Assembly (NCBI GenBank): GCA_963804165.1
Contig: CAWDPO010000038.1
Span: 1 to 64,000 of the forward strand
Reading direction: 5' to 3'
From: an uncultured delta proteobacterium
GTDB taxonomy: Bacteria; Desulfobacterota; Binatia; UBA9968
DNA: 64,000 bases
A model generated the notes under the pieces. The model had not been told where the DNA came from. It searched no databases and saw only the letters and a program-made list of their open reading frames with translations. Both the position numbers and the translations under genes were made by a program. Position 1 is the first letter of the stretch, and each line of letters starts with the position of its first letter. This document shows positions 1 through 30,274 of this stretch, one piece after another.

Positions 1-181
1 TTGCGTTTGCTGCTGCGCGTCGAGTCCTCAGCCCCAGCACACCGCGAACGCGACGAAAGCGATTGCCAAAAGCCCACGCCAATTTTCGATTTTGGATCCT
101 TCGGCGCGGCTCAGGACAGGTTTTAGATTTTAGATTGTCGGAGCAAGAATTCAGAACTCGGAGCCAAGACTTTTCATTCAT
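1..181 (-). CDS. 5' end of a probable further array SBP gene (runs off the window; signal-peptide region appears frameshifted)
   Basis: Leader MNEKSWLRVLNSCSDNLKSKTCPEPRRRIQNRKL matches the leaders of 2369..3442 and 5621..6741. An AQQQ motif follows in another frame. Confidence 0.55.
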   Translation of the reverse strand, partial: MNEKSWLRVLNSCSDNLKSKTCPEPRRRIQNRKLAWAFGNRFRRVRGVLGLRTRRAAANA

Positions 182-224
182 GCGTTTTCTCTCCCTCAAT
201 CCAAAATCTAAAATCGAAAATCCA
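82..224. repeat. AATCYAA-heptamer imperfect inverted repeat (array leader) with an embedded 23-nt REP-like insert
   Basis: ttttagattttagatt (121-136) faces aatccaaaatctaaaatcgaaaat (198-221). Insert ccttcggcgcggctcaggacagg at 98-120. Confidence 0.8.
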
Positions 225-238
225 CAATTACTTGTACT

Positions 239-1216
239 TCAGATAACGATGTTATCGAACGATTGCCTCACATCGAACTGCTTGGCTTTTGGATGTTCGA
301 CGGACTTAGTGCGTTGGTCATCGCTTTCTCCACGATGAACTGTGAAGCCAGAACTCGGGAAGGCCTCTTTGTAGAAATCGAAGGTGCCTTGCAGCAACGC
401 GTCATCGTCGGTTCGGGTAAATTTTCGCAGCGCGCGCTTGGTCGTCCGCGGCATTTTCCCTGGCGTATCTGTTGTCCTTCGTGGAGAGCGCGCAAGAAAA
501 ACTCATGGACCTTGGCGATTTTTGGGTTCCTTGAGCCAGGACTCGCGCGCTCCGATGACGGCTTTGGAAAGAGGCCGTATTCAGTCTGCGAAGGGCGGAA
601 CAGCAGATTGAATCCCGCGTTCTTGGCGCTGAGCCCGAAAGGGTACCCGATCATGCAGACATCGACGCGGCCGCCGACGAGGGCGGCATAGGATTCGCCA
701 ACGCCGCCATTCTGGATGAACGTGACTTCGGTCGGCTTCACCCCGCCCGACTCAACATGGACAGCGCCGAGAAGTAGCTGGAAGCGCCGAAGCGGGTTAC
801 ACCGCATTCTCTTGAGTCTCTCACGACGGATCGTACTCGATTCGGGCTTCGACCAACCATCGATTGTGAGGACGGGCAAGGGCGAGGCGATGGTCGATCA
901 GACTGCATTCACCGCTGAAGCCTGCTGGCGATGATCGCGCCGCCGCCGGTGTAGCCGATGGGAAATTCTCCGGCGAATATTGCCGAAATGAATTAGTGTG
1001 GAGCCGCCCATAAATACAGGGAAAAATATCGTAGCCGTGTTTCTGAAAAATTTTCTCTTCAACGCCAATGTACAGCGGGATCGCCGCGCCCCCGATGGGC
1101 GTGTAGCCGACGGTGAATTTTTGTAAATCCTTTTGCGCTGCTTGTGCGTAGACGCTTAGAAATGATGCAATGACGAGGAAGGTTGCAAACCACCAATGTG
1201 GATCTCTCGCTTTCAT
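239..1216 (-). pseudogene. NMT1/THI5-like (NitT/TauT) ABC substrate-binding protein, frameshifted (or sequencing indels); array cargo
   Basis: Signal peptide plus VGYTPIGGAAIPLYIGVEEKIFQKHG, then ESYAALVGGRVD and ALRKFTRTDDDALLQGTFDFY in different frames (ORFs 821..1216, 268..879, 239..454). Confidence 0.7.
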
Positions 1217-1237
1217 GGTAATCCTCCCGTGCCTAAA

Positions 1238-1334
1238 ATTTTGGATTTGCGGACGAAGATTTCGAACGAAATAGCTTCATAGAGTCGGGTCTCCTGGCTT
1301 TCAATCCAAAATCTAAAATCGAGAATCTAAAATA
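1238..1334. repeat. AATCYAA-heptamer leader element
   Basis: aatccaaaatctaaaatcgagaatctaaaat directly after the SBP stop at 1335, with a weak opposite arm attttggattt at about 1239. Confidence 0.7.
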
Positions 1335-2321
1335 TCATCTGATGACTTTGTCTGCTCTGGCCAGCACGTTCGGCGGGATCCGTGAGACCGATTTGCTTGG
1401 CTGTCTTCAGATTGATCATGAATTCAAACTTGGTCGGCTGCTCGACGGGCAGCTCGGCCGGTTTCGTACCCTTAAGTATCCTGTCAACGTAGAGGCGGCT
1501 CGGCGGAAACTTCAATATCATCGGCTGAATAAAATATCAGACCCCGGCCTGTACAAAATCACTGGGTTCGCACATTGATGGCAGTCTATTCTTGATGGCA
1601 AGGTCTGCAATTCGCCGCATGTTTCGAATGAGTACGAAACTCCTAATCGGAATGATCGCACCGGCACGCTCCTTAGCCGCGGTGTGAAATGCGCGTTCGA
1701 AATCAAGGTTCAGGGCGCGCAGCTCCAGGGATTGAAGATTTATCTTCAGCAACCGGGCAGTAGCCTCATACTCTTTAAAAGCAATAGTCGGCCCTGGTCC
1801 GTTCGCATCCCAGAGGACTCCGACGCGCGATACTTTCGGAACCACCTCCTTGAGCAGTTCCATCGTTTTCCGATTAGGTCGCGGGTGAGTCTGGTGAGCC
1901 CCGTGATATTTCCCCCAGGTCGCGCCAGGCTATCGATGAGCCCAGTCGCGACCGGATCCTGAACTGTCACCATGACAACAGGAATCGTCTTGGTCGCTTG
2001 CTTGGCTGCGAGGATCCCTCCTGTAGCTTGGGAGACAAGGATATCTACCTTGAGTTGCACCAGTTCGGTCACAAGGCTTGGGATACGGTCCGGCTTTCCT
2101 TCAGCAGAGCGAAACTCAATCACGATGTTTTTCCCCTCAACATAACCGAGATTCCGCAACCCCTGCCGGAATGCCTCAAGGTTCGGTGAGGGAGAAGAGA
2201 GATCGCCAGTTACTGTTACGTATCCTATCCGCGGAGCTTTCGTTGGCTGTTGCGCCTCGACAGAAAAGCAGAGCGCAAAGAGCATGGCGCAAAGAGTAAG
2301 GGCCGTGATTTTTTTCTTCAT
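1335..2321 (-). pseudogene. ABC_sub_bind-family SBP, array copy, 2 frameshifts
   Basis: ORFs 1746..2321, 1537..1863 and 1327..1521 together give signal-AQQ, DPVATGLIDSLARPGGNITG and [10 protein letters not shown]. Confidence 0.85.
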
Positions 2322-2368: not shown

Positions 2369-3442
2369 TCACTTGATCACCTTATCCGCCCGGTACAGCA
2401 CGTTCGGCGGAACTGTCAGGCGGATCTGCTTGGCCGCCTTAAGGTTGATCACGAGCTCGAACTTTATCGGTGCTTCCACCGGCAGGTCAGCCGGCTTCGT
2501 GCCCCTTAGGATCTTGTCAACGTACGTCGCGGCCCGCCTGTGCATGCCCGAGTAGCTTGGCCCATAGGACATCAAGCCACCCGCCTCGACCAACTCCACA
2601 TAAGCATGCACGCCTGGTAAGTGGTTTTGGGTGGCGAAGTCCATGATGCGCACGCGGTGGTGCAGGAACAGTCGGTCTGCTAACACGAGGAGCGCACCTG
2701 GTCGTTCTCTGAGAATTGTCGCAAATGCATTGTCGAACTGCTCCTCGGCTTGCACCCCCAGCGACAGCACTTTTATTTTCATTGCATGAGCAGCCGCCTG
2801 TGTCTCCTTTTCCCCCGCCACCTGCAAGGGGCTGGTGGGATTCCAGAGCACCGCAACGTGCGAGATTTTAGGGACCACTTCCCTGAGCAACTCCAACCGC
2901 TTCCCGTCTAGCTCCGGTGAGATCGAGGTCAACCCGGTGAGGTTTCCACCAGGGTGGGCGAGACTCGCGATGAGGCCCGACCCCACGGGGTCCCCGACGG
3001 CGATCATGACAAGGGGCAGCGTCGTTGTCGCCTGCTTGAGAGCGATCGTGGCGGGTGTGCCGGCGGTAACGATCAGTTCGACCTTCGAGGCGATCAGCTC
3101 CGCGATGAGGGCAGGAAAGCGCTCGTACTTTCCTTCCGCCCATCGCCACTCAATGACGATGTTTTTACCCTCGACATAGCCAACGTCATGCAACCCTTCG
3201 CGAAAGGGCCCGATCAGATTTGCCTCCAGGGCAGCGGTAGAGTTTCCCAGGAAACCGATCCGGGGGACCTTCCCTTTCTGCTGCGCCTCAGCCGTTCCCA
3301 CACACCCCACGAGCAGGACGAGGATTAGAAGAAACCCCACCCATTTTAGATTTTGGATACTTCGACTCAGCTCAGTACAGGTTTTAGATTTCCGATTATC
3401 AGAGCGAGAATTTGGAGATCGCATCCAGGTTTTCTCATACAT
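2369..3442 (-). CDS. ABC_sub_bind-family SBP, array copy
   Basis: Signal peptide-AEAQQ, DPVGSGLIASLAHPGGNLTG, GGLMSYG, PPNVLYRADKVIK. Confidence 0.92.
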   Translation of the reverse strand: MYEKTWMRSPNSRSDNRKSKTCTELSRSIQNLKWVGFLLILVLLVGCVGTAEAQQKGKVPRIGFLGNSTAALEANLIGPFREGLHDVGYVEGKNIVIEWRWAEGKYERFPALIAELIASKVELIVTAGTPATIALKQATTTLPLVMIAVGDPVGSGLIASLAHPGGNLTGLTSISPELDGKRLELLREVVPKISHVAVLWNPTSPLQVAGEKETQAAAHAMKIKVLSLGVQAEEQFDNAFATILRERPGALLVLADRLFLHHRVRIMDFATQNHLPGVHAYVELVEAGGLMSYGPSYSGMHRRAATYVDKILRGTKPADLPVEAPIKFELVINLKAAKQIRLTVPPNVLYRADKVIK

Positions 3443-3488
3443 TTGTTTTTCTCCTCAATCTAAAATCGGCAATCGAAAATCTAAAATA
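3342..3488. repeat. AATCYAA-heptamer inverted repeat leader with REP-like insert (3360-3381)
   Basis: attttagattttggat[acttcgactcagctcagtacagg]ttttagatttccgatt faces aatctaaaatcggcaatcgaaaatctaaaat. Confidence 0.8.
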
Positions 3489-4472
3489 TCATCTGATGAC
3501 TTTGTCCGCTCTGGCCAGCACATTCGGCGGAATCGTCAGTCCGATCTGCTTGGCGGTTTTGAGATTGATGATCAGGTCGAATTTTACGGGCCGCTCGACA
3601 GGCAGATCGGCCGGCTTGGTACCCTTGAGGATTTTATCGACAAAGGTCGCGGCGCGCCTATACATATCCGCATCATTTGGTCCGTAAACCATCAGGCCGC
3701 CGGCTTCGGCAAATGGAATTTGCCCATGGATTGTTGCGAAGCGGTTCTTGATGGCGAGGTCTGCCACTCGCGTTCGGTGCGTGAAAGTGACCGGATCACC
3801 GATAGTCATGAGGGCTCCGACGCTGTTCTTTTTTGCTGCCTGAAATATATTGTCTAGATCGTTGGGTCCACGTATTTCCAAAACTTGAATTTTTAACGCT
3901 AGCGACTGCGCCGCAAGTTCGGCATCTTTCAATGCGTCCGCGGTGCCCAACATGCCGGGGTTGCGAAGAACCGCGACGCGGGAGAGCCTGGGAATCGCTT
4001 CTTTGAGCAGCTCCAGACGTTTGCCATTTAACTCTTCGGCGTTGGAAGTGAGGCCCGTAATGTTGCCCCCTGGCCGGGCCAAACTTGCGACCAACCCGGT
4101 TCGAACTGGGTCGGCTTCATACGCGAGAACAATGGGAATTGTTCCAGCAGCTTCTTTTGCTGGACGCGTCGCAAGGGGACCTCCCGTAACGATGACATCG
4201 ACTCTGAGCCGAGCCAGTTCTTTGGCGAATTCACGAAGTCGGTCGAGGTTGTCTTCAGCATAGCGATACTCTACGAGGATGTTTTGGCCTTCAGTGTAGC
4301 CTTGCTCGCGCAAACCTTGCCGAAACGCTTCGACTCGACCTAACATGGAAGCGGCCGAACCCACTGACAGAAAACCTATTCGTGGAACTTTTTTTCGCTG
4401 CTGCGCCTCAACTGCAAAGCAAAGCGCCAAGAGCACAGCGTTGAGAGTCAACCCAAAAATCTTTTTCTTCAT
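3489..4472 (-). CDS. ABC_sub_bind-family SBP, array copy
   Basis: Family motifs SLARPGGNITG and PADLPVERP...[13 protein letters not shown]. Confidence 0.92.
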   Translation of the reverse strand: MKKKIFGLTLNAVLLALCFAVEAQQRKKVPRIGFLSVGSAASMLGRVEAFRQGLREQGYTEGQNILVEYRYAEDNLDRLREFAKELARLRVDVIVTGGPLATRPAKEAAGTIPIVLAYEADPVRTGLVASLARPGGNITGLTSNAEELNGKRLELLKEAIPRLSRVAVLRNPGMLGTADALKDAELAAQSLALKIQVLEIRGPNDLDNIFQAAKKNSVGALMTIGDPVTFTHRTRVADLAIKNRFATIHGQIPFAEAGGLMVYGPNDADMYRRAATFVDKILKGTKPADLPVERPVKFDLIINLKTAKQIGLTIPPNVLARADKVIR

Positions 4473-4509: not shown

Positions 4510-5544
4510 CTATCGAATCACCTTATCCGCTCTCGCCAGCACATTCGGCGGGATCGTAAGGCCGATCTGTTTGGCCGTCTTTAGGTTGATGACGAACTCA
4601 AACTTTGTCGGTTGCTCTACCGGCAAGTCCGCGGGCTTCGTCCCTTTGAGAATCTTGTCAACGTAAGTAGCGGCGCGCCGGTTCAAGTCGGTAAAGCTCA
4701 CGCCGTAGCTCATAAGCCCCGCGTCTTCCACCCATTCCGGCGCGTAGTATATCGCCGGGAGTCGACTCTTTATCGCGAGGCCCGCAATCTGCTTTCGCTG
4801 AGAATTGAGGACGAAGCTCTGGAGCAGGAGGACGGCGTCAGCACGCTCCTTGCTTGCGGCTCGGAATGCCGTTTCAATTTCCTTGGGGCCGAGTATGTCC
4901 AAAAATTGCAGCTTCGCACCGAACAGTCCTGCGGCGCGTTCCATCTCTCTTAACGCTTGCGCGGTGCCTGGCACGGTCGAAGTCCCGAGGACGGCCAAGC
5001 GCGAAAGCCTGGGAACGGTCTCCTTCAGAAGTTCCAGTCGTTTTCCGCTGATGTCCACAGAAAGGCTTGACAAGCCGGTAATGTTCCCGCCCGGTCGCGC
5101 CAGACTGGCGACGAACCCGCTTCCGACAGGATCAATATCCTGCGCCATGACAATCGGAATCGTATTCGTCGATTCCTTGGCCACACGGGTTGGTGACGCA
5201 CCAGTCGTCACGACGATATCTACCTTGAGACGCACCAGTTCGGCCGCGAGCGCAGGGAGACGATCGACTTTACCCTCAGCCGATTTCCATTCAATGACGA
5301 TGTTCTTGCCGTCGATGTAGCCAAGCTCGCGCAGGCCTTGACGGAACGCTTCGGTGCGATCTGTGATAGCGGAAATGGAGGAGCCAGTTAGGTATCCTAT
5401 CCGGGGAGTTTTTGCCGACTGCGCCTGAGCCACGTCCCCAGCCACCACGAGCACGAAAGCGATTGCAAAAAGTCCCAGCCATTTTGGATTTTGGATTGCC
5501 GGTTTTCGATCGTCGGAAAGAGACCTCGAAGGAAAAGCGTTCAT
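4510..5544 (-). CDS. ABC_sub_bind-family SBP, array copy
   Basis: Family motifs DPVGSGFVASLARPGGNITG and [18 protein letters not shown]. Confidence 0.92.
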   Translation of the reverse strand: MNAFPSRSLSDDRKPAIQNPKWLGLFAIAFVLVVAGDVAQAQSAKTPRIGYLTGSSISAITDRTEAFRQGLRELGYIDGKNIVIEWKSAEGKVDRLPALAAELVRLKVDIVVTTGASPTRVAKESTNTIPIVMAQDIDPVGSGFVASLARPGGNITGLSSLSVDISGKRLELLKETVPRLSRLAVLGTSTVPGTAQALREMERAAGLFGAKLQFLDILGPKEIETAFRAASKERADAVLLLQSFVLNSQRKQIAGLAIKSRLPAIYYAPEWVEDAGLMSYGVSFTDLNRRAATYVDKILKGTKPADLPVEQPTKFEFVINLKTAKQIGLTIPPNVLARADKVIR

Positions 5545-5620
5545 CGGTTTGTTCTGCTGGCTTTCAATCCAAAATCTAAAGCATGTCCTGAGCCATGCCG
5601 AAGGATCGAAAATCCAAATG
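5481..5620. repeat. AATCYAA-heptamer inverted repeat leader with reverse-oriented REP-like insert (5584-5604)
   Basis: attttggattttggatt faces aatccaaaatctaaa[gcatgtcctgagccatgccgaagg]atcgaaaatccaaat. Confidence 0.8.
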
Positions 5621-6741
5621 TTATTTGATCACCTTGTTCGCCCGGAAGAGGACCGATTGTGGAATGGTTAAGTTGAGCGCTTTTGCTGGTTTGAGATTGA
5701 TGACGAACTCGAACTTCGTCGGCTGCTCCACGGGAGATCGGCGGGCTTAGCGCCTTTCAGTATTTTATCCACGTACGTTGCGGCGCGGCGAAATATCTCA
5801 AGATCGTTGGCTGAATAGGACATCAGTCCGCCGTTCTCAACCCAGGTGCTGCCCTCGTACATCGAAGGCAGGCGGTTCTTTATCGCCAGATCCGCGATCC
5901 TCTTCGAATTACGAAAAAGCGGGGTATTCGTAATCGTGATCACCGCGTTCGCGCGCCCGTTGACCGCTTCTCTAAACGCGCCCTGCAAATCCGGATTCGG
6001 ACCGCGCACGTCTAGGGATTGAATCCGTATCTTGAGAGAGCGCGCCGCAGTTTCATACTCTTTGAATCCAATGGCCGATATCGACCTATTCGTATCCCGA
6101 AGGATTCCGACGCGCGCCAACCCCGGAACCACTTCCGCAAGCAACTCCAGCCGCTTGCCGCTCAAGTCGCGCTGCAGTGTGGCAAGCCCCGTGATATTTC
6201 CACCTGGATGCGCCAGGCTAGCGACTAGTCCAGTCGCGACTGGATCTACCTGAGTCACCATGACAATGGGGATCGTCTTGGTGACCTGTTTGGCAGCGAG
6301 GATCGCGGATACAAGCGGGAGCACGAGAACATCGACCTTGAGTTGGACGAGTTCGGCGACGATGCCTGGGATCGACTCCTCTTTTCCCTCAGCGCCGCGA
6401 AACTCGATCACGAAATGTTTCTCCTCGACGTAACCGAGATCTCGCAGCCCTTGCCGCAACGCCGCGACGTACGGTCCAGGATTGGAAGCGTTGCCGGTTC
6501 CTGACAAGTAACCTATCCGCGCGATCCTCGCCGGCTGTTGCGCCTGAGCCACAGCCCCGCACAGCGCGAATGTGAAACCGAGAGCAACGATCCCCACCAA
6601 TTTTCGATTTTGGATCCTTCGACGTCGCTCAGTACAGGTTTTGGATTTCCGATTATCGGAGTGAGAGAAATCAAGCCGAATTCCAAATTTCCCTTGCATT
6701 TGTTTTTCTCCGTAATCCAAAATCGGCAATCTAAAATCCAA
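5621..6741 (-). pseudogene. ABC_sub_bind-family SBP, array copy, one frameshift near the C-terminus
   Basis: ORF 5668..6741 is normal up to PADLP. The tail PQSVLFRANKVIK* continues in another frame to the stop at 5621-5623. Confidence 0.85.
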
Positions 6742-6743
6742 AA
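6600..6743. repeat. AATCYAA-heptamer inverted repeat leader with REP-like insert (6616-6638)
   Basis: ttttcgattttggat[ccttcgacgtcgctcagtacagg]ttttggatttccgatt faces aatccaaaatcggcaatctaaaatccaaaat. Confidence 0.8.
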
Positions 6744-6960
6744 TTATTTAATGACCCTGTCCGCTCTCGCCAGCACGTTGGGCGGAATCGTCAGTCCGAT
6801 TTGCTTTGCGGCTTTGAGATTAATTATAAATTCGAACCTCGTCGGCTGCTCGACGGGCAGGTCGGCGGGAGATCGGCGGGCTTGGCGCCTTTGAGAATCT
6901 TGTCCACATAGTACGCGACGCGCTGGTATTGATCGTCGTCCGCCGTGTAGGACATAAGCG
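6744..6960 (-). pseudogene. Orphan 3' tail of an SBP gene (no 5' part) after the TA-like cargo
   Basis: Translates as [29 protein letters not shown]...[38 protein letters not shown], with a short internal duplication near 6870. Confidence 0.85.
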
Positions 6961-6974
6961 AGGCAAGTTTTCAG

Positions 6975-7436
6975 CTAGGATTTAGTTTGATCTCGGTCTT
7001 TGCGCTTCAACGCTTCGACGTCCGCCAAGTCTTGCGTCCGCGCAGCGGCGAGTTTGTTCTTAATCAAGTGTTCTCTGGAGAGCACCGTGACCGGTTGATC
7101 GGCGAATTTCGAAATCACCCGCTCTACCCAGGCTTCGTCGAACTGGACACCGTCGATCGCGGTCAAGACATCGATGCGTATAGGTTCCACCCCGATCTGG
7201 AAAATGAGGCCGGGTGTCGAAAGGTCTTTTTCCGTTAGGTCATGCAACGGTGCGCCGAAGGTGCGTAGTGCTTCGATGACTCGCTTCGCGTTTTCTGCCG
7301 AAGGACGCACCCAAATGTCGAGGTCCTGGGTGGCGCGGACATGGCCGTGCGCGGCCAAGGCGTGAGCGCCGACCAAGAGAAATTCAACTTGTCGGGCGTT
7401 GAATTCTGCTAATAGATCTCTGAAGTCTTGGTTCAT
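6975..7436 (-). CDS. Nucleotidyltransferase-fold protein (DUF6036-like), putative TA component
   Basis: FLLVGAHALAAHGHVRATQDLD (G..A...HG..R.T.DLD motif) and C-terminal NKLAAARTQDLADVEAL. Confidence 0.8.
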   Translation of the reverse strand: MNQDFRDLLAEFNARQVEFLLVGAHALAAHGHVRATQDLDIWVRPSAENAKRVIEALRTFGAPLHDLTEKDLSTPGLIFQIGVEPIRIDVLTAIDGVQFDEAWVERVISKFADQPVTVLSREHLIKNKLAAARTQDLADVEALKRKDRDQTKS

Positions 7437-7599
7437 GGGCTTGGTTCGGTTGCCAAGCTAGGCAGAGCAGGGTCAATTCCCAAACAGCGTTCAGCCGCTC
7501 TTCGGGCGTAGCGGTGTCCCAATATTGCTGGTCGGGAACGGGGTCCCCGGGTCGGATAATGCGGCTAGTGATATGCTTGCGTTCGGCCGGATGGTCCAT
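7384..7599 (-). CDS. Small partner protein of the nucleotidyltransferase (antitoxin-like)
   Basis: 71 aa with YWDTATPEERLNAVWEL...EPRLQR, overlapping the downstream gene in a typical two-gene module arrangement. Confidence 0.65.
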   Translation of the reverse strand: MDHPAERKHITSRIIRPGDPVPDQQYWDTATPEERLNAVWELTLLCLAWQPNQAHEPRLQRSISRIQRPTS

Positions 7600-7618
7600 A
7601 CAGTGACTTTATAACACA
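7600..7618 (-). promoter_or_regulatory. Extended -10 (TGnTATAAA), probably leaderless promoter
   Basis: Minus strand GTGTTATAAA-GTCACTGT-ATG. The -10 box is 8 nt from the ATG and there is no RBS. Confidence 0.45.
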
Positions 7619-7661
7619 TTCCAAAGAACACTTCTGCTTGTCGTTTTCGCTCCCGCTTCTG

Positions 7662-9838: not shown

Positions 9839-9995
9839 CTGATCACTCTGGGTCCGCCCTTGCCAGCACGTTCGGCGGAATCGTGAGGCTGATCTGTTTG
9901 GCGGTTTTTAGATTGACGATGAATTCGAATTTCATGGGTTGCTCGACGGGCAGATCGGCGGGCTTGTCACCTTTTGGAATTTTGTGCATATAGTC
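9835..9995 (-). pseudogene. Orphan SBP 3' tail after TenA cargo
   Basis: Translates as [47 protein letters not shown](frameshift)RVIR*. Confidence 0.85.
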
Positions 9996-10027
9996 GTAAA
10001 CGGCTCGTACCGTTCCGGCCGCTCGCG

Positions 10028-10696: not shown

Positions 10697-10706
10697 GGCA
10701 CCCTCC

Positions 10707-11681: not shown

Positions 11682-11727
11682 GGCTTCCTCTCCCTAAATC
11701 TGAAATCGAAAATCGGAAATCCAAAAT

Positions 11728-12714: not shown

Positions 12715-12747
12715 CGTCTTCCCCCTTTCTCTTGCTGCTACTTCCCT

Positions 12748-17750: not shown

Positions 17751-17760
17751 GCTCCCTGCT
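17718..17760. repeat. TGCTCY-type heptamer leader (also at 26066-26100 and 27113-27140)
   Basis: ttgccgctccctgctccttgccctttgctccatgctccctgct. Confidence 0.7.
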
Positions 17761-18748: not shown

Positions 18749-18786
18749 CCTCCTTATCTCCAATTCTCTTATGCTACTGTCCGCTA

Positions 18787-19803: not shown

Positions 19804-19882
19804 CTTTTCTGCGCTGTATTACCTCTTCAGCCTGAGGCGATCCGACCTCTGCGGACTCCAACGCTATGTACTTTGCCCGCTG

Positions 19883-20869: not shown

Positions 20870-20908
20870 TTGTCACTCCTACTGTTGCCTAGTGCCTGTA
20901 GCCTTTTT

Positions 20909-21894: not shown

Positions 21895-21948
21895 CGAGTT
21901 TATTCCGTATGACCTCCTCTCAAACATCATTCTTTACATTTCATCCCT

Positions 21949-22943
21949 TCACCGAATCACCCTGTCCGCCCGCGCCAGCACATTGGGTGGTATCATGAGG
22001 CCGATTTGCTTGGCCGTCTTTAAGTTGATCACCAGTTCGAACTTCGTCGGCTGCTCCACCGGGAGGTCGGCGGGCTTCGTGCCTTTGAGAATCTTGTCGA
22101 CGTAATAGGCGACACGCCGGTAGCATCTGCGCAAGGTCCGCTCCGTAGGACATCAGCCCACCGGCCTCTAGAGCTGTTGTTTCGTCGTACAACGAGGCAA
22201 CCGGCTCTTTAATGCAAAGGTCGTAATCCGTTTTCTGTTAGCACGAAGCACGCTTCCCGCGAGGGGCACGTAGAGCCCATCCGGGTGATCCTTGTTTATG
22301 GCAGCGAATACCCTGTCAAAATCCTCCACAGCGCGTACCTCCCAATTCCGAAGAGTCAGCCCCAGCGCACGCGCTGCGGGAGGGAGATCCTCTTTGACTT
22401 CGCGCGAAGCGCTCGGATTGGCCGGATTATGCAGAATCGCGACGCGGGCAAGTTTGGGAATGGCCTCTTTGAGTATCTCCAGTCGCTTCCCGCCCAACTC
22501 ACTGTTAAGAGTTGTAAGGCCGGTAACGTTGCCTCCCGGACGGGCAAGGCTCACAACGAATCCTGCCTTGACCGGGTCGAGCCCAGTGCCGGTCATAACG
22601 ATGGGAATCGTCTTGGTCGCATTCTTTGCCGCACGGATCGGTGTGGTTCCGCCTGCTACCAGGATGAGTTCCACCTTGAGACCCACCAACTCGGCCGCAA
22701 GCGCGGGGTAACGATCCGACTTCCCCTCCGTATGTCGGTACTCAATGATGACGTTCTGTCCTTCTATGTAACCAAGCTCGCGCAGCGCCTTTCGAATTCC
22801 TTCCGCGCGCGGCGAGTCAGTAGCCGTGTCGGTCCCGATAGATACCCAATTCGCGGCACTTTCCCCGATTGCTGCGCTTCGGCGGAAACCCAGAGCGCAG
22901 AGAGCGCGGCGCAAAGAGTAAGGACCGTGTTTTTTTTCTTCAT
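21949..22943 (-). pseudogene. ABC_sub_bind-family SBP, array copy, frameshifted
   Basis: ORFs 22168..22914, 21941..22192 and 21949..22134. Start MKKK at 22943. Confidence 0.82.
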
Positions 22944-22983
22944 CTCTGTTCTCTATCTCGATTCACTTGATGCTCGCACCTTC

Positions 22984-23959
22984 TCACTTGATCACCTTCT
23001 GCGCGCGGGCGAGAATTTGTGGCGAAATCGTGACGCCGATTTGTTTTGGCGGTCTTGAGATTGATAACGAGTTCGAACTTCATCGCTTGCTCTACGGGAA
23101 GCTCAGCCGGTTTGGCGCCTTTGAGAATCTTATCGACGTAAAGCGCGGCGCGGTGAAATCTGTCGGCGTCGTTGGCCGCGTACGAGATCAGTCCCCCTTC
23201 CTCAACGAAGTTGCCCTGTTCAACCATCAATGGCACCCGTTTCTGAATCGCAAAATCAGCGATCCTTTTTATATGCTGATTGAGCACGACGTTGGTCACC
23301 GAGATGAGCGCATTCATCCGTTCCTTGTCGGCGGCGTGGAGCAATCCCTCGATATCAGGCTTCGGACGGTGCGCTTGGAGCGAGGTAAGCTTTAATTTAA
23401 ACGCGCCGGCGGCAGCTTCATAATTCTGAAAAGCGTTTCCTGCGCCGAGAGAGGTGGGACTCGCCCATATCACTCCCACGCGCGATATCTTCGGTACAGC
23501 TTCCTTTAGAAGTTCGAGCCGCTTTCCGCTGAGATCTCGGGTGAGACTAACAACTCCGGTTAGATTTCCGCCTGGACGCGCCAGGCTTTCGACGAGTCCG
23601 ATGGCAACCGGATCCTGATTGGTCATCATGACGATAGGAATTGTTTTGGTGGCGTGCTGAGCGGCCCGAATGGCCGTCGTACTTGAAACGATTAGAACAT
23701 CGACTTTGCTCTCTAAAAGCTCGGCGACCAAGCTAGGCATTCGGTCCGTGTTCCCCTGAGCGTAACGGTGGACTAATTCGATATTTTTACCTTCGACATA
23801 ACCGCGCTCGCGCAAGCCTTCTCGGAGTAACTCCAAGCCACGTTCAGCCGTGACCATGAAGCCTATCCGCGGGATCTTCGCTGGTTGCTGTGCGTCGGCG
23901 TGTGAGCAAAGTGCAATGAGCAGAACGCCAAGCGCAAGAGCAAAATTCTTTTGGATCAT
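22984..23959 (-). pseudogene. ABC_sub_bind-family SBP, array copy, one C-terminal frameshift
   Basis: Intact to INLKTAK. Tail SPQILARAQKVIK* is in another frame. Confidence 0.85.
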
Positions 23960-24006
23960 CGTTCTCTCCTCAACGCCTTACACCCCTAACCATTCGCGTC
24001 TCACGC

Positions 24007-25051
24007 CTATCGAATGACTTTGTCTGCTCTCGCCAGCACATTCGAGCGAAATCATGAGACCTGATCCGCTTTGCGGTTTTCAGATTGATGATCAGCTCGA
24101 ACTTTGTTGGTTGCTCCACTGGTAGATCAGCAGGCTTCGCACCCTTTAGAATCTTGTCCACATACACGACCGCGCGTCGGTATTGATCAGCATCATTCGC
24201 TCCATAAAACATGAGACAACCCGTCTCTACATACACACTTCCCTCGCACATTGAGGGCAGTCTGTTCTGTATGGCAAGATCGCCGATGCGCTTTGAGTGA
24301 CGATTGAGCGCACCAGCGCTAACTGTAATGAGCGCGCTCACGCCCCCCTTAGTCGCAGCTTGGACTGCTCCCTCGAAATCAAGGCTCGGGCTGCGCACCT
24401 CTAGGGATTGAAGCGGTATCTTCAGTGTACGCGCCGCAGCCTCGTATTCTTTAAAAGAAATGGCCGCCGCTGGTGCGTCCGCAACCCAAAGGACTCCAAC
24501 GCGTGATAGCCGCGGAACCGCCTCCTTGAATAATTCCAAACGTTTCCCGCTTAGGTCTCGGCCAAGTGTGGTGAGCCCGGTGATATTTCCGCCCGGGCGC
24601 GCCAAACTATCGACGATCCCAGTCGCGACTGGATCCACACTTGCCACCATGACAATGGGAATCGTCTTGGTCGCCTGCTTGGCTGCGCGAATCCCCGGTA
24701 AGACTTGAACGACAAGCACATCGACGTTTAATTGCACGAGTTCGGCCACCAGACTTGGCGCTTGGTCCAGTTTTCCCTCAAGATACCGGTACTCAATGAC
24801 GAAGTTCTTTCCCTCAACATAACCCAGATCTCGCAGTCCTTGCCGGAATGCCTCCGGAACGGATGGAATCAGTAGCTCGGTCGGTCGGCGATATATACCC
24901 GATCCGAGAGACTTTCTTCGACTGCTGGGTCGCCACGGAGGGAGAAGGCGCAAAGAGCATGGCCAAAAGTACGAAACAAAAGATTTCTCTCACGCATTAG
25001 AGTTCCTCCTCGTTATCGCTGACGACTGATAACTGACACTGAATCTGTCAT
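24007..25051 (-). pseudogene. ABC_sub_bind-family SBP, array copy, frameshifts at both ends
   Basis: Core ORF 23970..24953 has family motifs. Signal peptide and tail are out of frame. Confidence 0.82.
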
Positions 25052-26106
25052 CTGATAACTTTATCCGCTCGCGCCAGCACATTCGGTGGAATCGTCAGGC
25101 CGATCTGTTTGGCGGTTATGAGGTTGATGACAAATTCAAACTTCGTCGGCTGTTCTACGGGAAGGTCCGCGGGCTTAGTGCCTTTGAGAATCTTATCGAC
25201 GTAGTAAGCGGACCGGCGATGCATATCGGGAAGGCTCGGAGCATAAACCATGAGGCCACCTTCCTCGACGTAAAACCTCCAAGGATATATGGCTGGCAGC
25301 CGGTACTTGTGTGCCAGGGCGATGATCCTTTGCCGGGATCTCTCAAGCACAGATGGATCCGAGAAGACGAGAAGGGCCTTAGGACGGGCCTTGCCCATGG
25401 CTGAGAATGCGGTCTCAATTTCCTGTGGACTTCGTACCTTCCAGGCTTGCAGTTGAACTCCTAGCGATTTGCCTGCCGCTTGTGCGTCTCTCCACCGATT
25501 TGTTGCTTCTGGAAAGTCTGGATTCTGGAGGACAGCTACCTGCCCGAGTCCGGGAACAACTTCTTTGAGTAACTCAAGTCTCTTTCCATCGAGCGCCGCG
25601 GAAAGAAGGCTCAGTCCAGTAATGTTCGCGCCAGGCTGGGCGAGACTAGCGACGAAGCCCGCCGTCACTGGATCAGCTCCAGTCGCCGCCATGACGATCG
25701 GGATAGTGGTCGTTGCCTCTTTCGCTGCCTGGACCATCGGACCGCCGTTGGCAACGATCACGTCGACCCGCAGCCAAACGAGATCCGCCGCCAGTTCGCG
25801 CAAGCTCTGCGGTTTCTCTCCGGTCCAGCGACGCTCGAAGACGACGTTTTGGCCTTCTATCCATCCCAGGTCGTGCAAGCCTTGCCGGAAAGCCTCGAAG
25901 TTTTCCTTGCTGAGCGGATCAGTCGGAGATCCTCCAGTTAATCGCCCAACTCTGTAGACTCTTGCTGCCTTCTGTGCCAGAGCAGAACTGCAAAGCGCAA
26001 GGAGCGCGGCGCAAACCGTAAAAGCAAACACAATTTTCCTCACGAGTTTTCTCTGTTTCTTTTTCTGCCCACTGCTCTTTGCCCGCTGTTCTTTGCTGAC
26101 GTTCAT
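25048..26106 (-). CDS. ABC_sub_bind-family SBP, array copy
   Basis: Complete family motifs, with ATGA overlaps at both ends. Confidence 0.92.
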   Translation of the reverse strand: MNVSKEQRAKSSGQKKKQRKLVRKIVFAFTVCAALLALCSSALAQKAARVYRVGRLTGGSPTDPLSKENFEAFRQGLHDLGWIEGQNVVFERRWTGEKPQSLRELAADLVWLRVDVIVANGGPMVQAAKEATTTIPIVMAATGADPVTAGFVASLAQPGANITGLSLLSAALDGKRLELLKEVVPGLGQVAVLQNPDFPEATNRWRDAQAAGKSLGVQLQAWKVRSPQEIETAFSAMGKARPKALLVFSDPSVLERSRQRIIALAHKYRLPAIYPWRFYVEEGGLMVYAPSLPDMHRRSAYYVDKILKGTKPADLPVEQPTKFEFVINLITAKQIGLTIPPNVLARADKVIR

Positions 26107-27136
26107 CTGATTATCCGATCCGCTCTCGCCAACACATTCGGTGGTATCGTCAGCCCGATCTGCTTCGCGGCTTTTAGGTTGACGATGAATTCAAATTTCG
26201 TCGGTTGCTCGGCGGGAATGTCGCCGGGCTTGGTGCCTTTGAGGATTTTATCGACATACGTGGCGGCGCGGCGGTCCAAGTCGGTCAGGTTGACGCCATA
26301 GGATATAAGCCCACCAGCTTCCACGTCGAGTCGATTGCGGTAAATGACAGGCAGCCGGTTCTTTAGCCGCGAGTTCCAATAGCTGTGTTCGATTAGGATT
26401 TAGAATGATTCCCGGAGCGGCATAGACGGGCGCGTCAGCGCGCTCTTTGGTAGCGGCTCGGAATGCACGCTCAATGTCCTTGGGTCCGTAGGGCATCCAG
26501 CACTTGAAGCTTTACCCCTAGCGCTCGTCGCGCGTTCGATCTCTTTTAACGCTTGGTGTTGCCAGGCGTGGTTGATCCCCCGAACACGGCCAGGCGAAAG
26601 AACTTCGGAACGATTTCTTTGAGCAGCTCCAGTTGTTTTCCGCTTAGCTCCGGCGCAACGCGGGAAAGTCCCGTGATATTCCCGCCTGGGCGCGCCAGGC
26701 TGGCGACGAAACCGTTTCAACGGGATCGGAATCCTGCGTCATAACGACTGGAATCGTATTGAAGCTTGCTTCGCTTGGCGGAACGCGTCGCGCCTGCGCC
26801 CGCCGTGACGATGACATCAACCTTCAGACGCACCAGATTCGCAGCAGCGGCGCGATCTTGTTTTCCTTCGTAACGAAACTCGATGACAATGTTTTTCCCG
26901 TCCATCATAGCCGAGCTCTCGCAGACCCTGCCGGAATGCCTCGGCGCGGAGCTTTGCAGGGTGACTAGAGAGCTATCGTTCAAGTATCCTATTCGCGGGA
27001 CTTTCCTTGGCTGCTGCGCCCCAACGGGAAAGCAAAGCGTAAAGAGCACGGTGCTAAGCGCAAGACCAAAGAATTGTCTTCTCATGAATCTACTTCTGTG
27101 TTCTTGCAACTCCCTGCTCCTTGCCCTTTGCTCCAT
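26103..27136 (-). pseudogene. ABC_sub_bind-family SBP, array copy with many frameshifts
   Basis: ORFs 26717..27136, 26248..26496 and 26103..26324 carry successive family segments. Confidence 0.82.
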
Positions 27137-27137: not shown

Positions 27138-28179
27138 CTATTTGATCACCTTATCCGCCCGCGCCAGCACATTCGGTGGTATCGTGAGACCGATTTGTTT
27201 CGCGGTTTTCAGGTTGATCACGAGTTCGAACTTGGCCGATTGCTCGACTGGAATCTCGGCCGGCTTCGTGCCCTTAAGAATCTTGTCGACATCCACGCAG
27301 CGCGCCTGTAACTCTCAGCATCGTTGGACGAGTAAGAAATGAGCCCGCCAGGTTCTATCCAAAAACTCGACTCATACATTGAAGGCAGGCGGTGCTTTAT
27401 GGAAAGCTGAGCAATTTCCTTTCGGTGGCGATCTAACATGTTATTGCCAACCGTAATCAGAGCGCGCACGCGGCCTTTGACAGCGGATTGAAATGCACCG
27501 TGCAGATCGGGGCTTGGCCCTCGCACTTCTAAGGATTGCAGTTGAAGCTTTAATGCGATCGGCCGCAGCCTGGTACTCTTTAAAACTAAGCTTGGGTCCT
27601 TCTGCACCTGCATCCCACAGGACACCAACGCGAGAAATTCCTGGAATGATCTCTGTAACCAATTCTAACCGCTTACCGCTTAGTTCTCGGTTGAGCCTGC
27701 TAATCCCTGGTAAGGTTTCCACCTGGGCGGGCCAAGCTATCGACAAGGCCAGTCGCAACCGGATCCTGGTTGGTAACCATAACAATGGGAATCGTCTTGG
27801 TAGCCTGCTTCGCTGCGCGGATTGCCTGCGGATCTGGAGATACAAGGAGATCGACCCTGAGTTGTATAAGATCGGCTACAAGGCTTGGGATACGGTCGCG
27901 CTTTCCTTCAGCGTAGCGAAACTCAATCAGGATGGTTTTTCCGTCGACATAGCCGAGATCTTTCAGCCCTTGAAGAAACGCCTCAACGTTACGCCCTGGA
28001 ATAGAGGGCTCGCCAACCACCCTCACGTATCCTATCCGCGGGATTTTCCCCGGCTGTTGCGCCTGGGCGAACGAACCAGTTGTCAGGAGAACCGTTGCCA
28101 GTATCCACAAGAGAATTCGCCATGGGTTTTCTCCGATGTCTTTGCTGACAACTGACCACGGTCGACTGACAACTGTCAT
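27138..28179 (-). pseudogene. ABC_sub_bind-family SBP, array copy, frameshifted
   Basis: ORFs 27700..28179, 27441..27845 and 27218..27628, plus a tail ending at the stop 27138-27140. Confidence 0.82.
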
Positions 28180-29174
28180 CGAATCACCTTATCTGCCCGC
28201 ACCAGCACATTCGGCGGAATCGTCAGGCCGATCTGTTTCGCCGTCTTGAGGTTAATCACTAACTCGAACTTCGTCGGCTGCTCGACGGGTATGTCAGCGG
28301 GTTTTGTGCCTTTGAGAATCTTATCCATGAGAGTGGCAGCGCGCCGGAACATATCGGTATAGTTCGGCCCGTACGATATAAGACCGCCAGCTTCTACAAA
28401 AGCGCGATTTTCGAATATCGCCGGCAACCGATTTTTCGCTACAAAATCTAGAATCTGCTTCTGATAAGAATTGAGGACTGGATCCATTAACGCGAGAAAA
28501 CCATCAGGTCGATCTTTAGACACCACGCCAAAAATCACTTCGAGCTCATTAGGGTCTTTCACCCCTCGATCTTGCAACGTTATGCCCAACGGTCCTGCGA
28601 CGTCTTGGGTTGCTTTCGCTTCGAGCGCCATGCCGGCATTGCCCTTATTCCAAACCATGGCCACCCTCGAGAGCTTGGGAAAGATTTCTTTTAGCAGCTC
28701 TAGCCGCTTGGGCCATAGGTCCGAAGCGAGGACGGAGATGCCCGTGATATTACCGCCCGGGTGCGCGAGACTAGCGACAACGCCCATTCCAATCGGATCG
28801 CTAGTGCTGAAGAAAACGATAGGAATCGTTTTAGTCACTTCTCTAAGAGCGAAGATAGCGGGCGTACCCGCTGTGAAAATCGCGTCCACCTTTAGCAGGA
28901 CCAGTTCCCTTGCGAGTTCAGGAAGGCGCTCTGCCTTTCCCTCTGCAAAACGATACTCAATAAGAATATTTTTCCCCTCGACGTAGCGGAGTTCGCGAAG
29001 CCCCTGAATGAATGCATCGACGTTGGCGTTGGGAGCCGCACCGAGGTATAAAACACCAATCCGTGGCGTCGTCGCTTGTTTCTGCGCGTGGGCCGGATAT
29101 ACCGAAGCCAGAATAAGTGTGGCCAAGATGAATAGTGTGGAAGTGGTTTTTTTCATGGATTTTTCTCCTTCCAT
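28176..29174 (-). CDS. ABC_sub_bind-family SBP, array copy (alternative start 29156)
   Basis: Complete family motifs. Confidence 0.92.
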   Translation of the reverse strand: MEGEKSMKKTTSTLFILATLILASVYPAHAQKQATTPRIGVLYLGAAPNANVDAFIQGLRELRYVEGKNILIEYRFAEGKAERLPELARELVLLKVDAIFTAGTPAIFALREVTKTIPIVFFSTSDPIGMGVVASLAHPGGNITGISVLASDLWPKRLELLKEIFPKLSRVAMVWNKGNAGMALEAKATQDVAGPLGITLQDRGVKDPNELEVIFGVVSKDRPDGFLALMDPVLNSYQKQILDFVAKNRLPAIFENRAFVEAGGLISYGPNYTDMFRRAATLMDKILKGTKPADIPVEQPTKFELVINLKTAKQIGLTIPPNVLVRADKVIR

Positions 29175-29204
29175 TACATGACGCCTCGTACGCCGTGCAG
29201 GGTT

Positions 29205-30179
29205 TTACTTGATTACCTTCTGCGCCCGCGCCAGAACTTGCGGCGGGATAGTCACGCCGAGTTGCTTCGCGGTTTGTAAATTGATCGCCAGCTCAACGCT
29301 GTCGACGGTTTCGATCTTTAACTCCTTCGGCGGCGTGCCGCTTAGCACTCGCTGCACGTACTTGGCGGAAATCCGACCGATCTCAAAATAATTCTGACCG
29401 TAGCTCGCCAGTCCGCCTTTGGCGACCAGGCTTTGATCCTGCAACATGGTCGGCAACTTTTTCGCCTTGGCGGTGTCGATGATCAGCTGTGCCTGGCTGA
29501 CAACCGTGGCATCCGCGAGATAAAAGAACGCGTCGGCCTCCTTGCTTTTGATTTCCTGCAGCGCTTTGCGCAGCTCGTCGACCGAGTTCACATGACGCTC
29601 GATGAGCTTGAGCCCCAGCCGTTTCGCTTCTTGCCGCGCCAATGCGGCGCCGTCCGCGGCGACTTGATTTTTCGGATCGTAAATGGTCAGTACTCGACCG
29701 ACTTTTGGCAATATCTCTTTGAGAATCTCCAAACGCTTGGCCGTGAGGTCCTTCACCGGATAATGAACCCCCGTCAGCCTGCCGCCGGGCGTCGCGAAGT
29801 CGTTCACCAATCCGAAGGTCACTGGATTGCTGCCAATGCAGAATACAATCGGCGTATGCACCGTCGCTGCCTTCGCCGCGGCGATTACGGTGCTCGTCAT
29901 TACGTAGAGCAGGTTGACTTTTTCCCGCTCGAAGTCTCGCGCCGCTTCTTCAGCTATTTTCAGATCGCCCTTAGTGTCGCGAATGGCAAGCGAGATTTGC
30001 TTTCCTTCTTGCAGGCCGAGTTCCTTCAGGCCGTGACGCAGCCCCTCAACGATATCGTATAAGGGCCCTCCAGGGAGGATGACGCCGATACGTGGCGGCT
30101 TTGGCTGTTGTGCCTGTGCGGGTGCGGCGAGCGCAACGAGCAACGTGCTCAGCGCAAGGCAAAAAAAGTTTTTAAACAT
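29205..30179 (-). CDS. ABC_sub_bind-family SBP, first (promoter-proximal) and most divergent array member
   Basis: NPVTFGLVNDFATPGGRLTG, GGLASYG, PPQVLARAQKVIK. Confidence 0.9.
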   Translation of the reverse strand: MFKNFFCLALSTLLVALAAPAQAQQPKPPRIGVILPGGPLYDIVEGLRHGLKELGLQEGKQISLAIRDTKGDLKIAEEAARDFEREKVNLLYVMTSTVIAAAKAATVHTPIVFCIGSNPVTFGLVNDFATPGGRLTGVHYPVKDLTAKRLEILKEILPKVGRVLTIYDPKNQVAADGAALARQEAKRLGLKLIERHVNSVDELRKALQEIKSKEADAFFYLADATVVSQAQLIIDTAKAKKLPTMLQDQSLVAKGGLASYGQNYFEIGRISAKYVQRVLSGTPPKELKIETVDSVELAINLQTAKQLGVTIPPQVLARAQKVIK

Positions 30180-30259
30180 GGTTCCCCCGATCCAGCATCA
30201 ATCCGTGCTGGTTATTTATGGCCATCTGACTGGAATCTCGCACCCGGCGCGTTGCTTGC

Positions 30260-30274
30260 GCAAGGGTTATACCA
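30260..30274 (-). promoter_or_regulatory. Sigma54-type promoter at the head of the SBP array
   Basis: Minus strand TGGTAT-AACCC-TTGC (GG-N10-GC), about 80 nt upstream of the ATG at 30179. Confidence 0.6.

Follow-up and report, generated by a model that had tools for sequence, protein, structure and literature searches.

A long co-oriented array of apparently orphan PF04392 binding-protein genes in an uncultured Binatia genome, with probable reshuffling at the 3' ends of genes

The closest described counterpart of the locus reported here is the expansion of the tripartite tricarboxylate transporter (TTT) substrate-binding proteins (SBPs; 'Bug', TctC, PF03401). In the accessible portions of the paper that describes them (PMC5994714), orphan members are over-represented in Rhodoplanes sp. 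Z2-YC6860, Bordetella and Cupriavidus, where lineage-specific expansion has raised the secreted paralogues to tens or hundreds while membrane components remain few. The members of their tandem arrays, the longest of which has 9 genes, are mostly <50% identical and have their nearest relatives outside the array, and the roles proposed for them are the use of shared transporters or sensing (PMC5994714). The present study concerns positions 1-64,000 of contig CAWDPO010000038.1 (C38) of an uncultured delta proteobacterium of the Binatia lineage UBA9968, a stretch that is called the window in what follows. Here, the minus strand of 1-30179 is occupied by SBP genes of another family, PF04392 (ABC_sub_bind), arranged head to tail and all co-oriented. 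As far as the accessible text of that paper goes, both systems share SBP genes that far outnumber the membrane components and neighbours that are not nearest relatives. Judged by this likeness, the PF04392 arrays are an analogue of the TTT/Bug expansions and not a member, as they belong to PF04392 and not to PF03401.

The arrays likely arose through a birth-and-death expansion of orphan binding proteins across the lineage, with reshuffling by homologous recombination at the 3' ends of the genes. In this proposal, which is drawn from sequence comparison, secreted PF04392 proteins without a transporter would have expanded, the intact ones being kept by purifying selection and many others having decayed. 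Arrays would change through multi-unit tandem duplication, deletion, insertion of insertion sequences (IS) and ectopic homologous recombination, with crossovers in the final ~60-220 nt of the gene, where the units have their only long stretch of DNA in common. A block made of a leader and its open reading frame (ORF) would behave as an exchangeable cassette, and unrelated genes lying between two 3' ends would travel likewise. No dedicated recombinase would be needed, and we infer RecA-type recombination as the mechanism.

Units were called with a hidden Markov model (HMM) built from 14 intact window copies. Its scan of 1-30179 returned 25 units, of which 23 are of gene length and 2 are tail-only remnants; with a 3' core at 16664-16686, the orphan 3'-end remnants in the window amount to three. 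Fifteen of the gene-length units are single-frame and eight are broken, six being split over 2-4 frames and two frameshifted within the 3' end. Aligned intact copies of the window show 35-57% identity to the first copy, and the spacers between units are mostly 40-60 nt long, with a Shine-Dalgarno-like GGAG (read by eye). Five non-family cargo loci lie between the units, all on the minus strand like the SBP genes, and neither a permease nor an ATPase was found within 1-30274. The window starts at base 1 of C38, therefore the array runs off the edge, and synteny carries it on into another contig (C37). The first-pass annotation, made from the letters of this DNA, had described these traits correctly: 23 co-oriented ABC_sub_bind genes head to tail that continue past the edge, variable middles with conserved 3' ends, five unrelated cargo loci in the same orientation and the lack of permease and ATPase.

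The assignment to the family was examined with a Pfam scan of four window units, which matched PF04392 at E values of 1.7e-45 to 7.6e-60, with 156-203 bits against a cut-off of 25.9 and coverage from model positions 6-24 to 292-293 of 293. An alignment of the copies (A1) matched the PDB entries 3LKV, 3LFT and 6HNI (E 1.4e-56 to 4.4e-42) by way of the C-terminal motif, which aligns residue by residue with the C-terminus of the Vibrio structure 3LKV. Judged by this alignment, the conservation of the 3' end mainly reflects a protein motif common to the whole family. At the N-terminus, the same alignment reads as a hydrophobic segment followed by a near-invariant A-Q (A23, Q24), a pattern as expected for secretion, and the units are predicted to be secreted. 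The NCBIfam TrpX model matched at E 1.9e-35 and 3.9e-46, with scores of 122-158 bits that fall far below the equivalog cut-off of 390, therefore ligand specificity is not predicted. L-Trp, L-Tyr and L-Phe are the ligands given for the PF04392/TrpX family in the accessible part of PMC10443332.

The contrast between the middle and the end of the gene is strong in the genome that carries the window (G000; other G numbers denote comparison genomes). Amino acid identity among 67 full copies is 0.26-0.38 in alignment windows 165-255 versus 0.69-0.78 in the last 55 codons, and 14 matches to a 23-nt core of the 3' end, with up to 3 mismatches, were counted in the window, all of them on the minus strand, against 0 expected. 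Identity at third codon positions is 0.33-0.39 along most of the gene, including its conserved blocks, and rises to 0.43-0.53 over the final 55 codons. Where residues are identical, their codons also coincide in a fraction of 0.57-0.59 of comparisons in the 15-codon core (0.53-0.59 across the 3' end) versus 0.40 in the gene body, a modest excess that is the same whether copies are compared inside G000, between G000 and other genomes, or among the other genomes. Concerted evolution was considered as the cause of this nucleotide conservation and rejected, because the values are equal within and between genomes. The codons are position-specific, with ATC at one Ile and ATT at another across differently labelled groups of metagenome-assembled genomes (MAGs), and C-ending codons switch to G-ending ones from about HMM position 294.

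The units seem to be ancient. Over the 2211 pairs of the 67 intact copies, the mean nucleotide identity is 0.56 in the N-terminal part, 0.51 in the middle and 0.70 in the 3' end, and dN/dS is 0.09-0.25 for eight orthologue pairs. By these measures, the units are old, and purifying selection acts on those that are intact. Only 2 of 80 copies have their nearest paralogue next to them, and 7 of 80 have it on the same contig. A FastTree tree was built with 129 copies (62 from other G000 contigs, 18 from the window and 49 from the syntenic arrays of six other genomes), a sample biased by taking only syntenic arrays from the other genomes. In this tree, the nearest leaf of the 18 window copies belongs to another genome in 7 cases, to another G000 contig in 10 and to a non-adjacent window copy in 1, and is never an adjacent copy (0/18). 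The comparison of phylogeny with position that the first-pass annotation had proposed thus found neighbours that are almost never nearest relatives, and simple tandem duplication is not supported by it.

The features of the locus, from the array head to its distal end and followed by the flanking elements, are the following:

29205-30179, minus strand: SBP unit 1 (head copy), intact; PF04392 E 7.6e-60, reciprocal best hits, tree.
28176-29174, minus strand: SBP unit 2, intact; 90% amino acid identity to G012 unit 10533.
27141-28116, minus strand: SBP unit 3, split over 4 frames.
26106-27085, minus strand: SBP unit 4, split over 3 frames.
25048-26106, minus strand: SBP unit 5, intact.
23970-24953, minus strand: SBP unit 6, frameshift within the 3' end.
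22940-23959, minus strand: SBP unit 7, frameshift within the 3' end.
21952-22943, minus strand: SBP unit 8, split over 3 frames.
20909-21874, minus strand: SBP unit 9, single frame, start uncertain.
19883-20869, minus strand: SBP unit 10, intact.
18790-19713, minus strand: SBP unit 11, split over 4 frames.
17759-18742, minus strand: SBP unit 12, single frame; PF04392 E 2.4e-53.
16719-17750, minus strand: SBP unit 13, intact.
16664-16686, minus strand: orphan 3' core, 33-55 nt past the unit 13 stop; differs from the 23-nt core at 2 positions.
16373-16387, minus strand: perfect match to the sigma54 -24/-12 consensus (TGGCAC-N5-TTGC, 0 mismatches), 57-71 nt upstream of the PAP2-like gene.
15045-16316, minus strand: cargo, PAP2-like protein with predicted signal peptide; PF01569 E 2e-09.
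14007-14990, minus strand: SBP unit 14, intact.
12906-13949, minus strand: cargo, alpha/beta hydrolase, predicted to be secreted; PF00561 E 1.6e-22.
11728-12714, minus strand: SBP unit 15, intact.
10707-11681, minus strand: SBP unit 16, intact.
10028-10696, minus strand: cargo, TENA/THI-4 family gene; PF03070 E 1.1e-19.
9852-10013, minus strand: orphan SBP 3' remnant (HMM 271-324), directly downstream of the TENA cargo.
8789-9838, minus strand: SBP unit 17, intact; PF04392 E 1.7e-45.
7662-8792, minus strand: SBP unit 18, intact; ~90% amino acid identity to G012 unit 9435.
6975-7599, minus strand: cargo, DUF2204/DUF6036 nucleotidyltransferase with an overlapping 71-aa upstream ORF; PF09970 E 9.1e-07.
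6747-6964, minus strand: orphan SBP 3' remnant (HMM 259-328), directly downstream of the nucleotidyltransferase cargo.
5624-6606, minus strand: SBP unit 19, split over 2 frames.
4510-5544, minus strand: SBP unit 20, intact.
3489-4472, minus strand: SBP unit 21, intact; PF04392 E 5.4e-47.
2369-3442, minus strand: SBP unit 22, intact; its leader of ~140 nt (3346-3492) forms a hairpin.
1375-2321, minus strand: SBP unit 23, split over 3 frames.
About 230-1216, minus strand: cargo, broken NMT1/THI5-type binding-protein gene, recognised via an intact G018 homologue.
30260-30274, minus strand: weak sigma54-like motif with 2 mismatches, located ~80 nt ahead of unit 1; not above chance.
30499-31560, plus strand: AI-2E family transporter gene, divergent from the array head; PF01594 E 1.2e-55.

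Evidence for the exchange of whole units comes from segments of high identity whose ends fall at the 3' ends of genes. Unit 22 exists in three near-identical copies (C38, C37 and C6); window 2385-3554 is 99-100% identical to C6:10500-11667, and this identity starts in the 3' core of the upstream gene plus the heptamer spacer and ends ~15 nt before the unit 22 stop. The TENA cargo, 96.8% identical to C5:10491-11247, is bracketed by the 3' end of the upstream gene and the orphan 3' remnant downstream. In the duplicate shared by C37 and C38, identity decays within the 3' end of unit 20, the right border lying within the last ~220 nt of this unit. Homology blocks between G000 and G012 end exactly at stop codons and stand in a different order, so that window 29207-30114 and 28172-29206, adjacent in G000, are 2.2 kb apart in G012. 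Twelve segments were picked from 54 non-redundant BLAST segments (at least 95% identity, excluding the C5/C41 overlap and the C37 row of the C6 unit), and 13 of the 24 ends of these segments fall in the 250 nt that precede a stop. The earlier proposal of insertion and excision at the conserved 3' end therefore survives in one part, as the 3' end marks the borders of exchangeable units (C6, C5 and G012 junctions). The boundaries of remnants are scattered from HMM position 259 to about 316, and with such variation there is no fixed recombination site.

Exchange may also have occurred between species. Against G012:C264, dS is 0.27-0.29 for two shared units (7662-8573 and 28172-29206); elsewhere against G012, it is 0.70 for the head unit, 1.37 for the AI-2E anchor and 0.67-1.50 for the five flanking genes with usable alignment. 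These low values may reflect later exchange between species or stronger codon constraint. Two further ideas were dropped. Survival of only the 3' ends after deletion holds for the three window orphans and for isolated fragments in G012, G015 and G018, and is a weak excess genome-wide; intragenic shuffling was hinted at by partial high-identity BLAST segments, and no discordant halves were seen in the 67 intact copies. Contigs of four DNA runs compared with window 6000-25999 matched as pieces of 150-900 nt, and the joints listed came from single contigs of one run (X4), with short sides of 21-47 nt, as expected from paralogues of other organisms.

Synteny indicates that the window holds one half of a larger locus. 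Orthologues of the AI-2E gene are present in 18 of the 30 other genomes of the genus, where it is a conserved anchor of the locus, and in G004, G015 and G018 the order is AI-2E gene, array and a dCache-HAMP-GAF histidine kinase. In G000, the orthologue of this array-distal kinase is located at C37:124377-127320, just past a co-oriented array that reaches the C37 end, which identifies C38 and C37, on gene order, as the two halves of a single locus. From the AI-2E gene to the kinase, the whole locus comprises ~44 units (25 + 19) over at least 54 kb. C38:250-4731 and C37:145494-149960 are 95.6% identical over 4.5 kb and four units, with 3 kb at 99.2%, and the contigs probably break at this duplication. 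Extra content of the C37 half consists of an IS, an NMT1-type gene, two non-family ORFs (231 and 241 aa) and a pair of small ORFs that resembles the Phd/RelE type (judged by eye). Extension of the array to the left, suggested earlier as a way to reach a recombinase or a transporter, yielded neither: the C37 half, in which no ATPase was seen, gave no match to the PF02653 permease, the PF00589 tyrosine recombinase or the PF00078 reverse transcriptase; ABC ATPases were not searched genome-wide.

The size of the array at this locus differs widely among relatives: G008 has 1 unit, G004 3-4, G015 12, G012 at least 19, G018 22 and G000 ~44. The head copy is mostly collinear with G015 and G018, as are 2-4 further anchors; unit 1 has its orthologue as the head copy in G015, G018 and G006, and as the sixth in G012, where three clear orthologues stand in another order. 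In G005, the AI-2E gene adjoins an SBP gene; this genome is unpublished and otherwise enters only the genus tallies of family presence, AI-2E orthologues and permease. Collinear anchors in G015 and G018 together with another order in G012 point to a locus that is inherited vertically, with large gains, losses and rearrangements. The first-pass annotation had linked a capture system to varying order and content at the AI-2E locus; size and order do vary, but several anchors are vertically inherited and mostly collinear in G015 and G018. The dCache histidine kinase is split into 2-3 frames in G000 (C37:124377-127320) and G018 (L093:9341-12326), which is either real decay or the result of assembly indel errors.

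Beyond this locus, G000 holds 156 PF04392 matches, and a census gave ~154 units (69 gene-length single-frame, 40 gene-length broken and 45 partial) in 33 clusters, which cover 196,569 of 7,498,433 bp (2.6%). The arrays are frequently at contig ends (e.g. C5, C6, C14, C37, C38 and C41), and units are co-oriented within each array. The genome is 81% complete with 5% contamination. C5:111-6144 and C41:1-6091 are reverse-complement copies, 97% identical over 6 kb that include a recombinase element and SBP fragments; they are either a repeat or strain variants assembled twice. The family is present in 18 of 18 sampled genomes of the same genus, many with >50 matches, and in sister families in 4 of 5 and 0 of 7 genomes. 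Two C-terminal peptide patterns run against a sequence collection retrieved at least 583 stretches, 581 of them confirmed, and the MAGs among the matches listed are labelled Binatia, Deltaproteobacteria/Syntrophobacteraceae, Rokubacteria, Methylomirabilota, Verrucomicrobia, Pyrinomonadaceae, Betaproteobacteria and others, although labels on short contigs may reflect mis-binning. Among these listed matches, 79 loci were fetched from other soil and groundwater MAGs: 50 have at least two full copies and only 2 have a copy on the opposite strand. As arrays recur in the loci of other MAGs, the architecture is therefore widespread and not an artefact of the G000 assembly. The flank genes of one locus (L019, from a MAG labelled Candidatus Binatia) share 64-87% amino acid identity with C30 and C46.

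Few transporters are at hand for so many binding proteins. G000 has five PF02653 permease loci, all LivHM-type pairs, versus ~109 gene-length SBP units. The Liv loci inspected near arrays (C18 and C11) are complete LivHMGF-type systems with their own Peripla_BP_6 proteins, and were rejected as array partners for this reason; the ATPases found next to SBP genes at L019 and L065 are probably components of different ABC systems, to judge from neighbouring ORFs and BLAST with no Pfam scan. The family does have an operon of its own in G018 (L104:4653-11476) and G015 (L103:10134-18847), composed of a 655-661-aa protein with two PF04392 stretches (shown for the G018 copy), a STAS protein, a single BPD_transp_2 permease and an ATPase. 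The G018 operon adjoins a GAF-SpoIIE-HATPase_c_2 phosphatase gene, which pairs the transporter with partner-switching signalling genes. The family-type permease occurs in only 5 of 31 genus genomes and was not found in G000 (81% complete) or in G014 (99% complete, with 86 SBP candidates and five permease pairs). This scarcity, together with the few LivHM pairs, indicates that the array units are true orphans. They may form a broad periplasmic receptor repertoire whose ligands would be passed on to sensors or to a small set of shared ABC importers of the Liv type.

With regard to expression, one sigma54-type promoter had been placed at the array head (30260-30274), an assignment that finds no support above chance. 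Scored with the sigma54 -24/-12 consensus, matches at the level of two mismatches number 70 in the window against 62 +/- 8 expected. As the head motif is weak and a perfect match lies inside the array (16373-16387), an array driven by a single promoter is therefore not demonstrated. Several other arrays or single copies are preceded by one-mismatch sites, at a distance of 36-180 nt, and recurrent TGGCAAC..TCTTGCT 'sigma54 sites' inside arrays were read as signal-peptide codons and not counted as promoters. Three leaders of ~140 nt (3346-3492, 5484-5628 and 6604-6750) form hairpins via inverted GATTTTN heptamer tracts that enclose the ribosome-binding site, with folding z values of only -1.3 to -1.9. 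Matches to the leader 3346-3492 lie in SBP arrays in 20 of 23 cases. The long leaders were considered as recombination sites and set aside, since they look like gene-associated 5' leaders instead. Tandem heptamer tracts (GTCAGTN, GATTTTN, GGAGCAN and TTGAACN) occur in many spacers, e.g. 28116-28179, 11681-11731 and 3443-3488. G000 has 74 such tracts, 21 of them in arrays (2.6% of the genome), the TTGAACN type being mostly outside arrays; we take them to resemble cyanobacterial STRR repeats.

Among the cargo, the PAP2-like protein also has a VCPO_2nd match of 26.2 bits, slightly below the 27-bit cut-off. The nucleotidyltransferase occupies 6975-7436 and the 71-aa ORF, with no Pfam match, 7384-7599; by their arrangement, the two are a possible toxin-antitoxin pair. 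The NMT1/THI5-type gene has no Pfam match in the window, and its G018 homologue is intact within an array (L092:18622-19614) and matches PF09084 at E 5.5e-17. Beyond the AI-2E gene lie ordinary core genes (thioredoxin-TPR, PutA, CTP synthase and a CHASE-PAS-GGDEF protein). Window 47565-51191, on the plus strand, encodes a 1208-aa MASE1-CHASE-PAS-GAF-GGDEF protein, an ordinary signalling gene unlinked to the array.

Several explanations compete with birth-and-death expansion and recombination at 3' ends. In one of them, possible but doubtful as the leading cause, the ~45-nt 3' core is a cis element (a DNA site or mRNA signal required to express the following gene, or a translation signal at codon level), of which the cassette borders are a by-product; it can coexist with recombination. 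The same-codon excess of the core over the gene body, equal within and between genomes, and the position-specific codon choice across differently labelled MAG groups speak for it, as do the 3' remnants retained beside cargo genes. Moreover, with spacers of only 40-60 nt, a signal serving the next gene could not avoid overlapping the 3' end that precedes it. On the other hand, 15 unit ends with 40 nt downstream hold no conserved RNA structure (consensus -0.09 kcal/mol, 0/4 pairs covarying), and there is no excess of sigma70-like (8 vs 9.2 +/- 2.9 expected) or terminator-like motifs (23 vs 22 +/- 4.1). The top codon reaches only 65-80% per core position, which is loose for a binding site, and selection for accurate translation at conserved residues could also raise codon identity. 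An extended form of this idea, rather unlikely in our estimation, would make the ~45-nt core in the last 20 codons a selected portable cis element, a recombination handle with a possible regulatory role, and the arrays an integrase-free or Xer-assisted analogue of integrons. If it were true, soil bacteria would swap, capture and lose cassettes of leader and gene, with cargo, within and between species, and the low dS of the G012-shared units beside their flanks and anchor is a hint of such exchange between species. The integron-like scheme of site-specific cassettes, in which a tyrosine recombinase (e.g. XerC-like) acts at the 3' end or at the repeat leaders, is highly improbable. It draws on the co-oriented units with mixed cargo, including the Phd/RelE-like pair of the C37 half, and on whole-unit transfers bordered at 3' cores. 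Recombinases of 284-310 aa with Phage_integrase and Phage_int_SAM_4 domains, XerC/IntI-like, do exist in G000, in repeated mobile units of 1.4-2.6 kb (C37:1344-2781, C5:3651-5093, C41:1062-2523, C10:35479-37033, C18:37335-38144, C23:251854-252663 and C23:259745-260554), some of them inside arrays on C5/C41, C18 and C23, and of 92 loci from other genomes, only 3 have a recombinase beside an SBP gene. However, these units often adjoin a 1.2-kb IS (at least 9 copies) or another IS and are found outside arrays too; IS elements also lie inside arrays, and a build-up of mobile elements in dispensable DNA is the simpler reading. The lack of integrase, recombinase and reverse transcriptase noted earlier for the window array was borne out and extends to the C37 half, and the 54-kb locus and the syntenic arrays of G012, G015, G018 and G004 are free of XerC-like recombinases. 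No G000 match passes the TIGR02249 integron-integrase cut-off (best 162.6 vs 265 bits), the matches falling into separate stretches (up to model position ~181 and again from ~237), with ~182-236 left uncovered. The three RVT_1 genes (C9, C12 and C17) all lie outside arrays, and no reverse transcriptase lies within them. In the same 15 unit ends with 40 nt, neither an attC-like hairpin nor conservation after the stop codon was seen, no dedicated attC model being used; the folding of short spacers is no more stable than that of shuffled sequences (z -0.5 to +0.9), and there was no Rfam family match. Given also the variable boundaries, the family-wide motif, the ancient copies and the vertical anchors, the undescribed integron-like capture system put forward in the first-pass annotation is not upheld.

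Local tandem duplication with divergence in place, the apparent shuffling being due to age and loss, would fit a locus that is fixed in the genus and varies in size in place, as well as the C37/C38 segment, whose copies would be ~2 kb apart if the contigs abut. It is nevertheless an unlikely account of the whole, as the nearest paralogue is so rarely adjacent, identical units occur in different arrays (C6 and C5) and orthologues stand in another order in G012. An artefact of assembly or binning, with collapsed or concatenated repeats or strain mixtures, could be suspected from the arrays at contig ends, the C5/C41 overlap and the contamination; yet the units differ by ~45-50% at nucleotide level, so most of the array assembles unambiguously, and the same architecture is present in the independent genomes G004, G012, G015 and G018 and in the 50 listed loci of other MAGs, which leaves this explanation with a negligible share. 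Birth-and-death expansion with recombination at 3' ends has its own difficulties. It does not explain the synonymous excess in the 3' end, and it depends on a handful of recent events, with BLAST segment ends biased to where conservation stops. Orphan fragments away from contig ends are, genome-wide, 10 tail-only, 6 head-only and 7 middle-only, the tail being the easiest part of a unit to detect. Among the 2211 pairs of intact copies there is no mosaic pair (largest half difference 0.16), therefore recombination inside genes is not demonstrated. Of about nine XerC-like copies, 3-5 sit inside arrays; a transporter could be missed in a genome at 81% completeness; and some 'broken' units may be assembly indel errors, because the flanking kinase is also split in G000 and G018.

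No published description of PF04392 arrays was found in a search of papers, supplementary files being outside its reach, and the comparison with known systems is one of partial likeness. Sedentary chromosomal integrons share with these arrays the long co-oriented series of short units, the mixed cargo with toxin-antitoxin-like pairs and a content that varies between relatives at a fixed chromosomal site. Unlike them, the present arrays have neither IntI nor an attC-like site, consist mostly of ancient paralogues of a single family, and carry units with their own ribosome-binding sites and at least one predicted internal sigma54-type promoter. Silent-cassette gene conversion, as in Neisseria pilS/pilE and Borrelia vls, also relies on arrays with many partial or broken family copies, and conserved 3' sequences could guide recombination here as well. 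The difference is that no expression site with silent donors is evident, the 67 intact copies contain no mosaics, and intact copies have predicted signal peptides and are under purifying selection. Canonical PF04392/TrpX members adjoin a permease and an ATPase. The array units belong to the same family as 3LKV, 3LFT and 6HNI, with the same length and a C-terminal motif aligned with 3LKV, but lack this adjoining pair, in contrast to the G018 and G015 operon.

The TTT/Bug expansions remain the nearest parallel, and what sets the present arrays apart, as far as the accessible portions of PMC5994714 go, is the PF04392 ABC type with its other class of transporter, a length of ~44 units versus 9, the strict co-orientation, the many decayed copies, the 3'-end borders and the co-travelling cargo. 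Orphan SBP expansion is thereby extended to an ABC-type family in uncultured soil lineages, with far longer and strictly co-oriented arrays, which sharpens the question of what dozens of transporter-less receptors do, whether feeding shared Liv-type importers, signalling or buffering ligands. Modular borders at a conserved 3' end, and likewise the synonymous conservation of that end, would offer a testable route to the reshuffling of a receptor repertoire without a dedicated machine.

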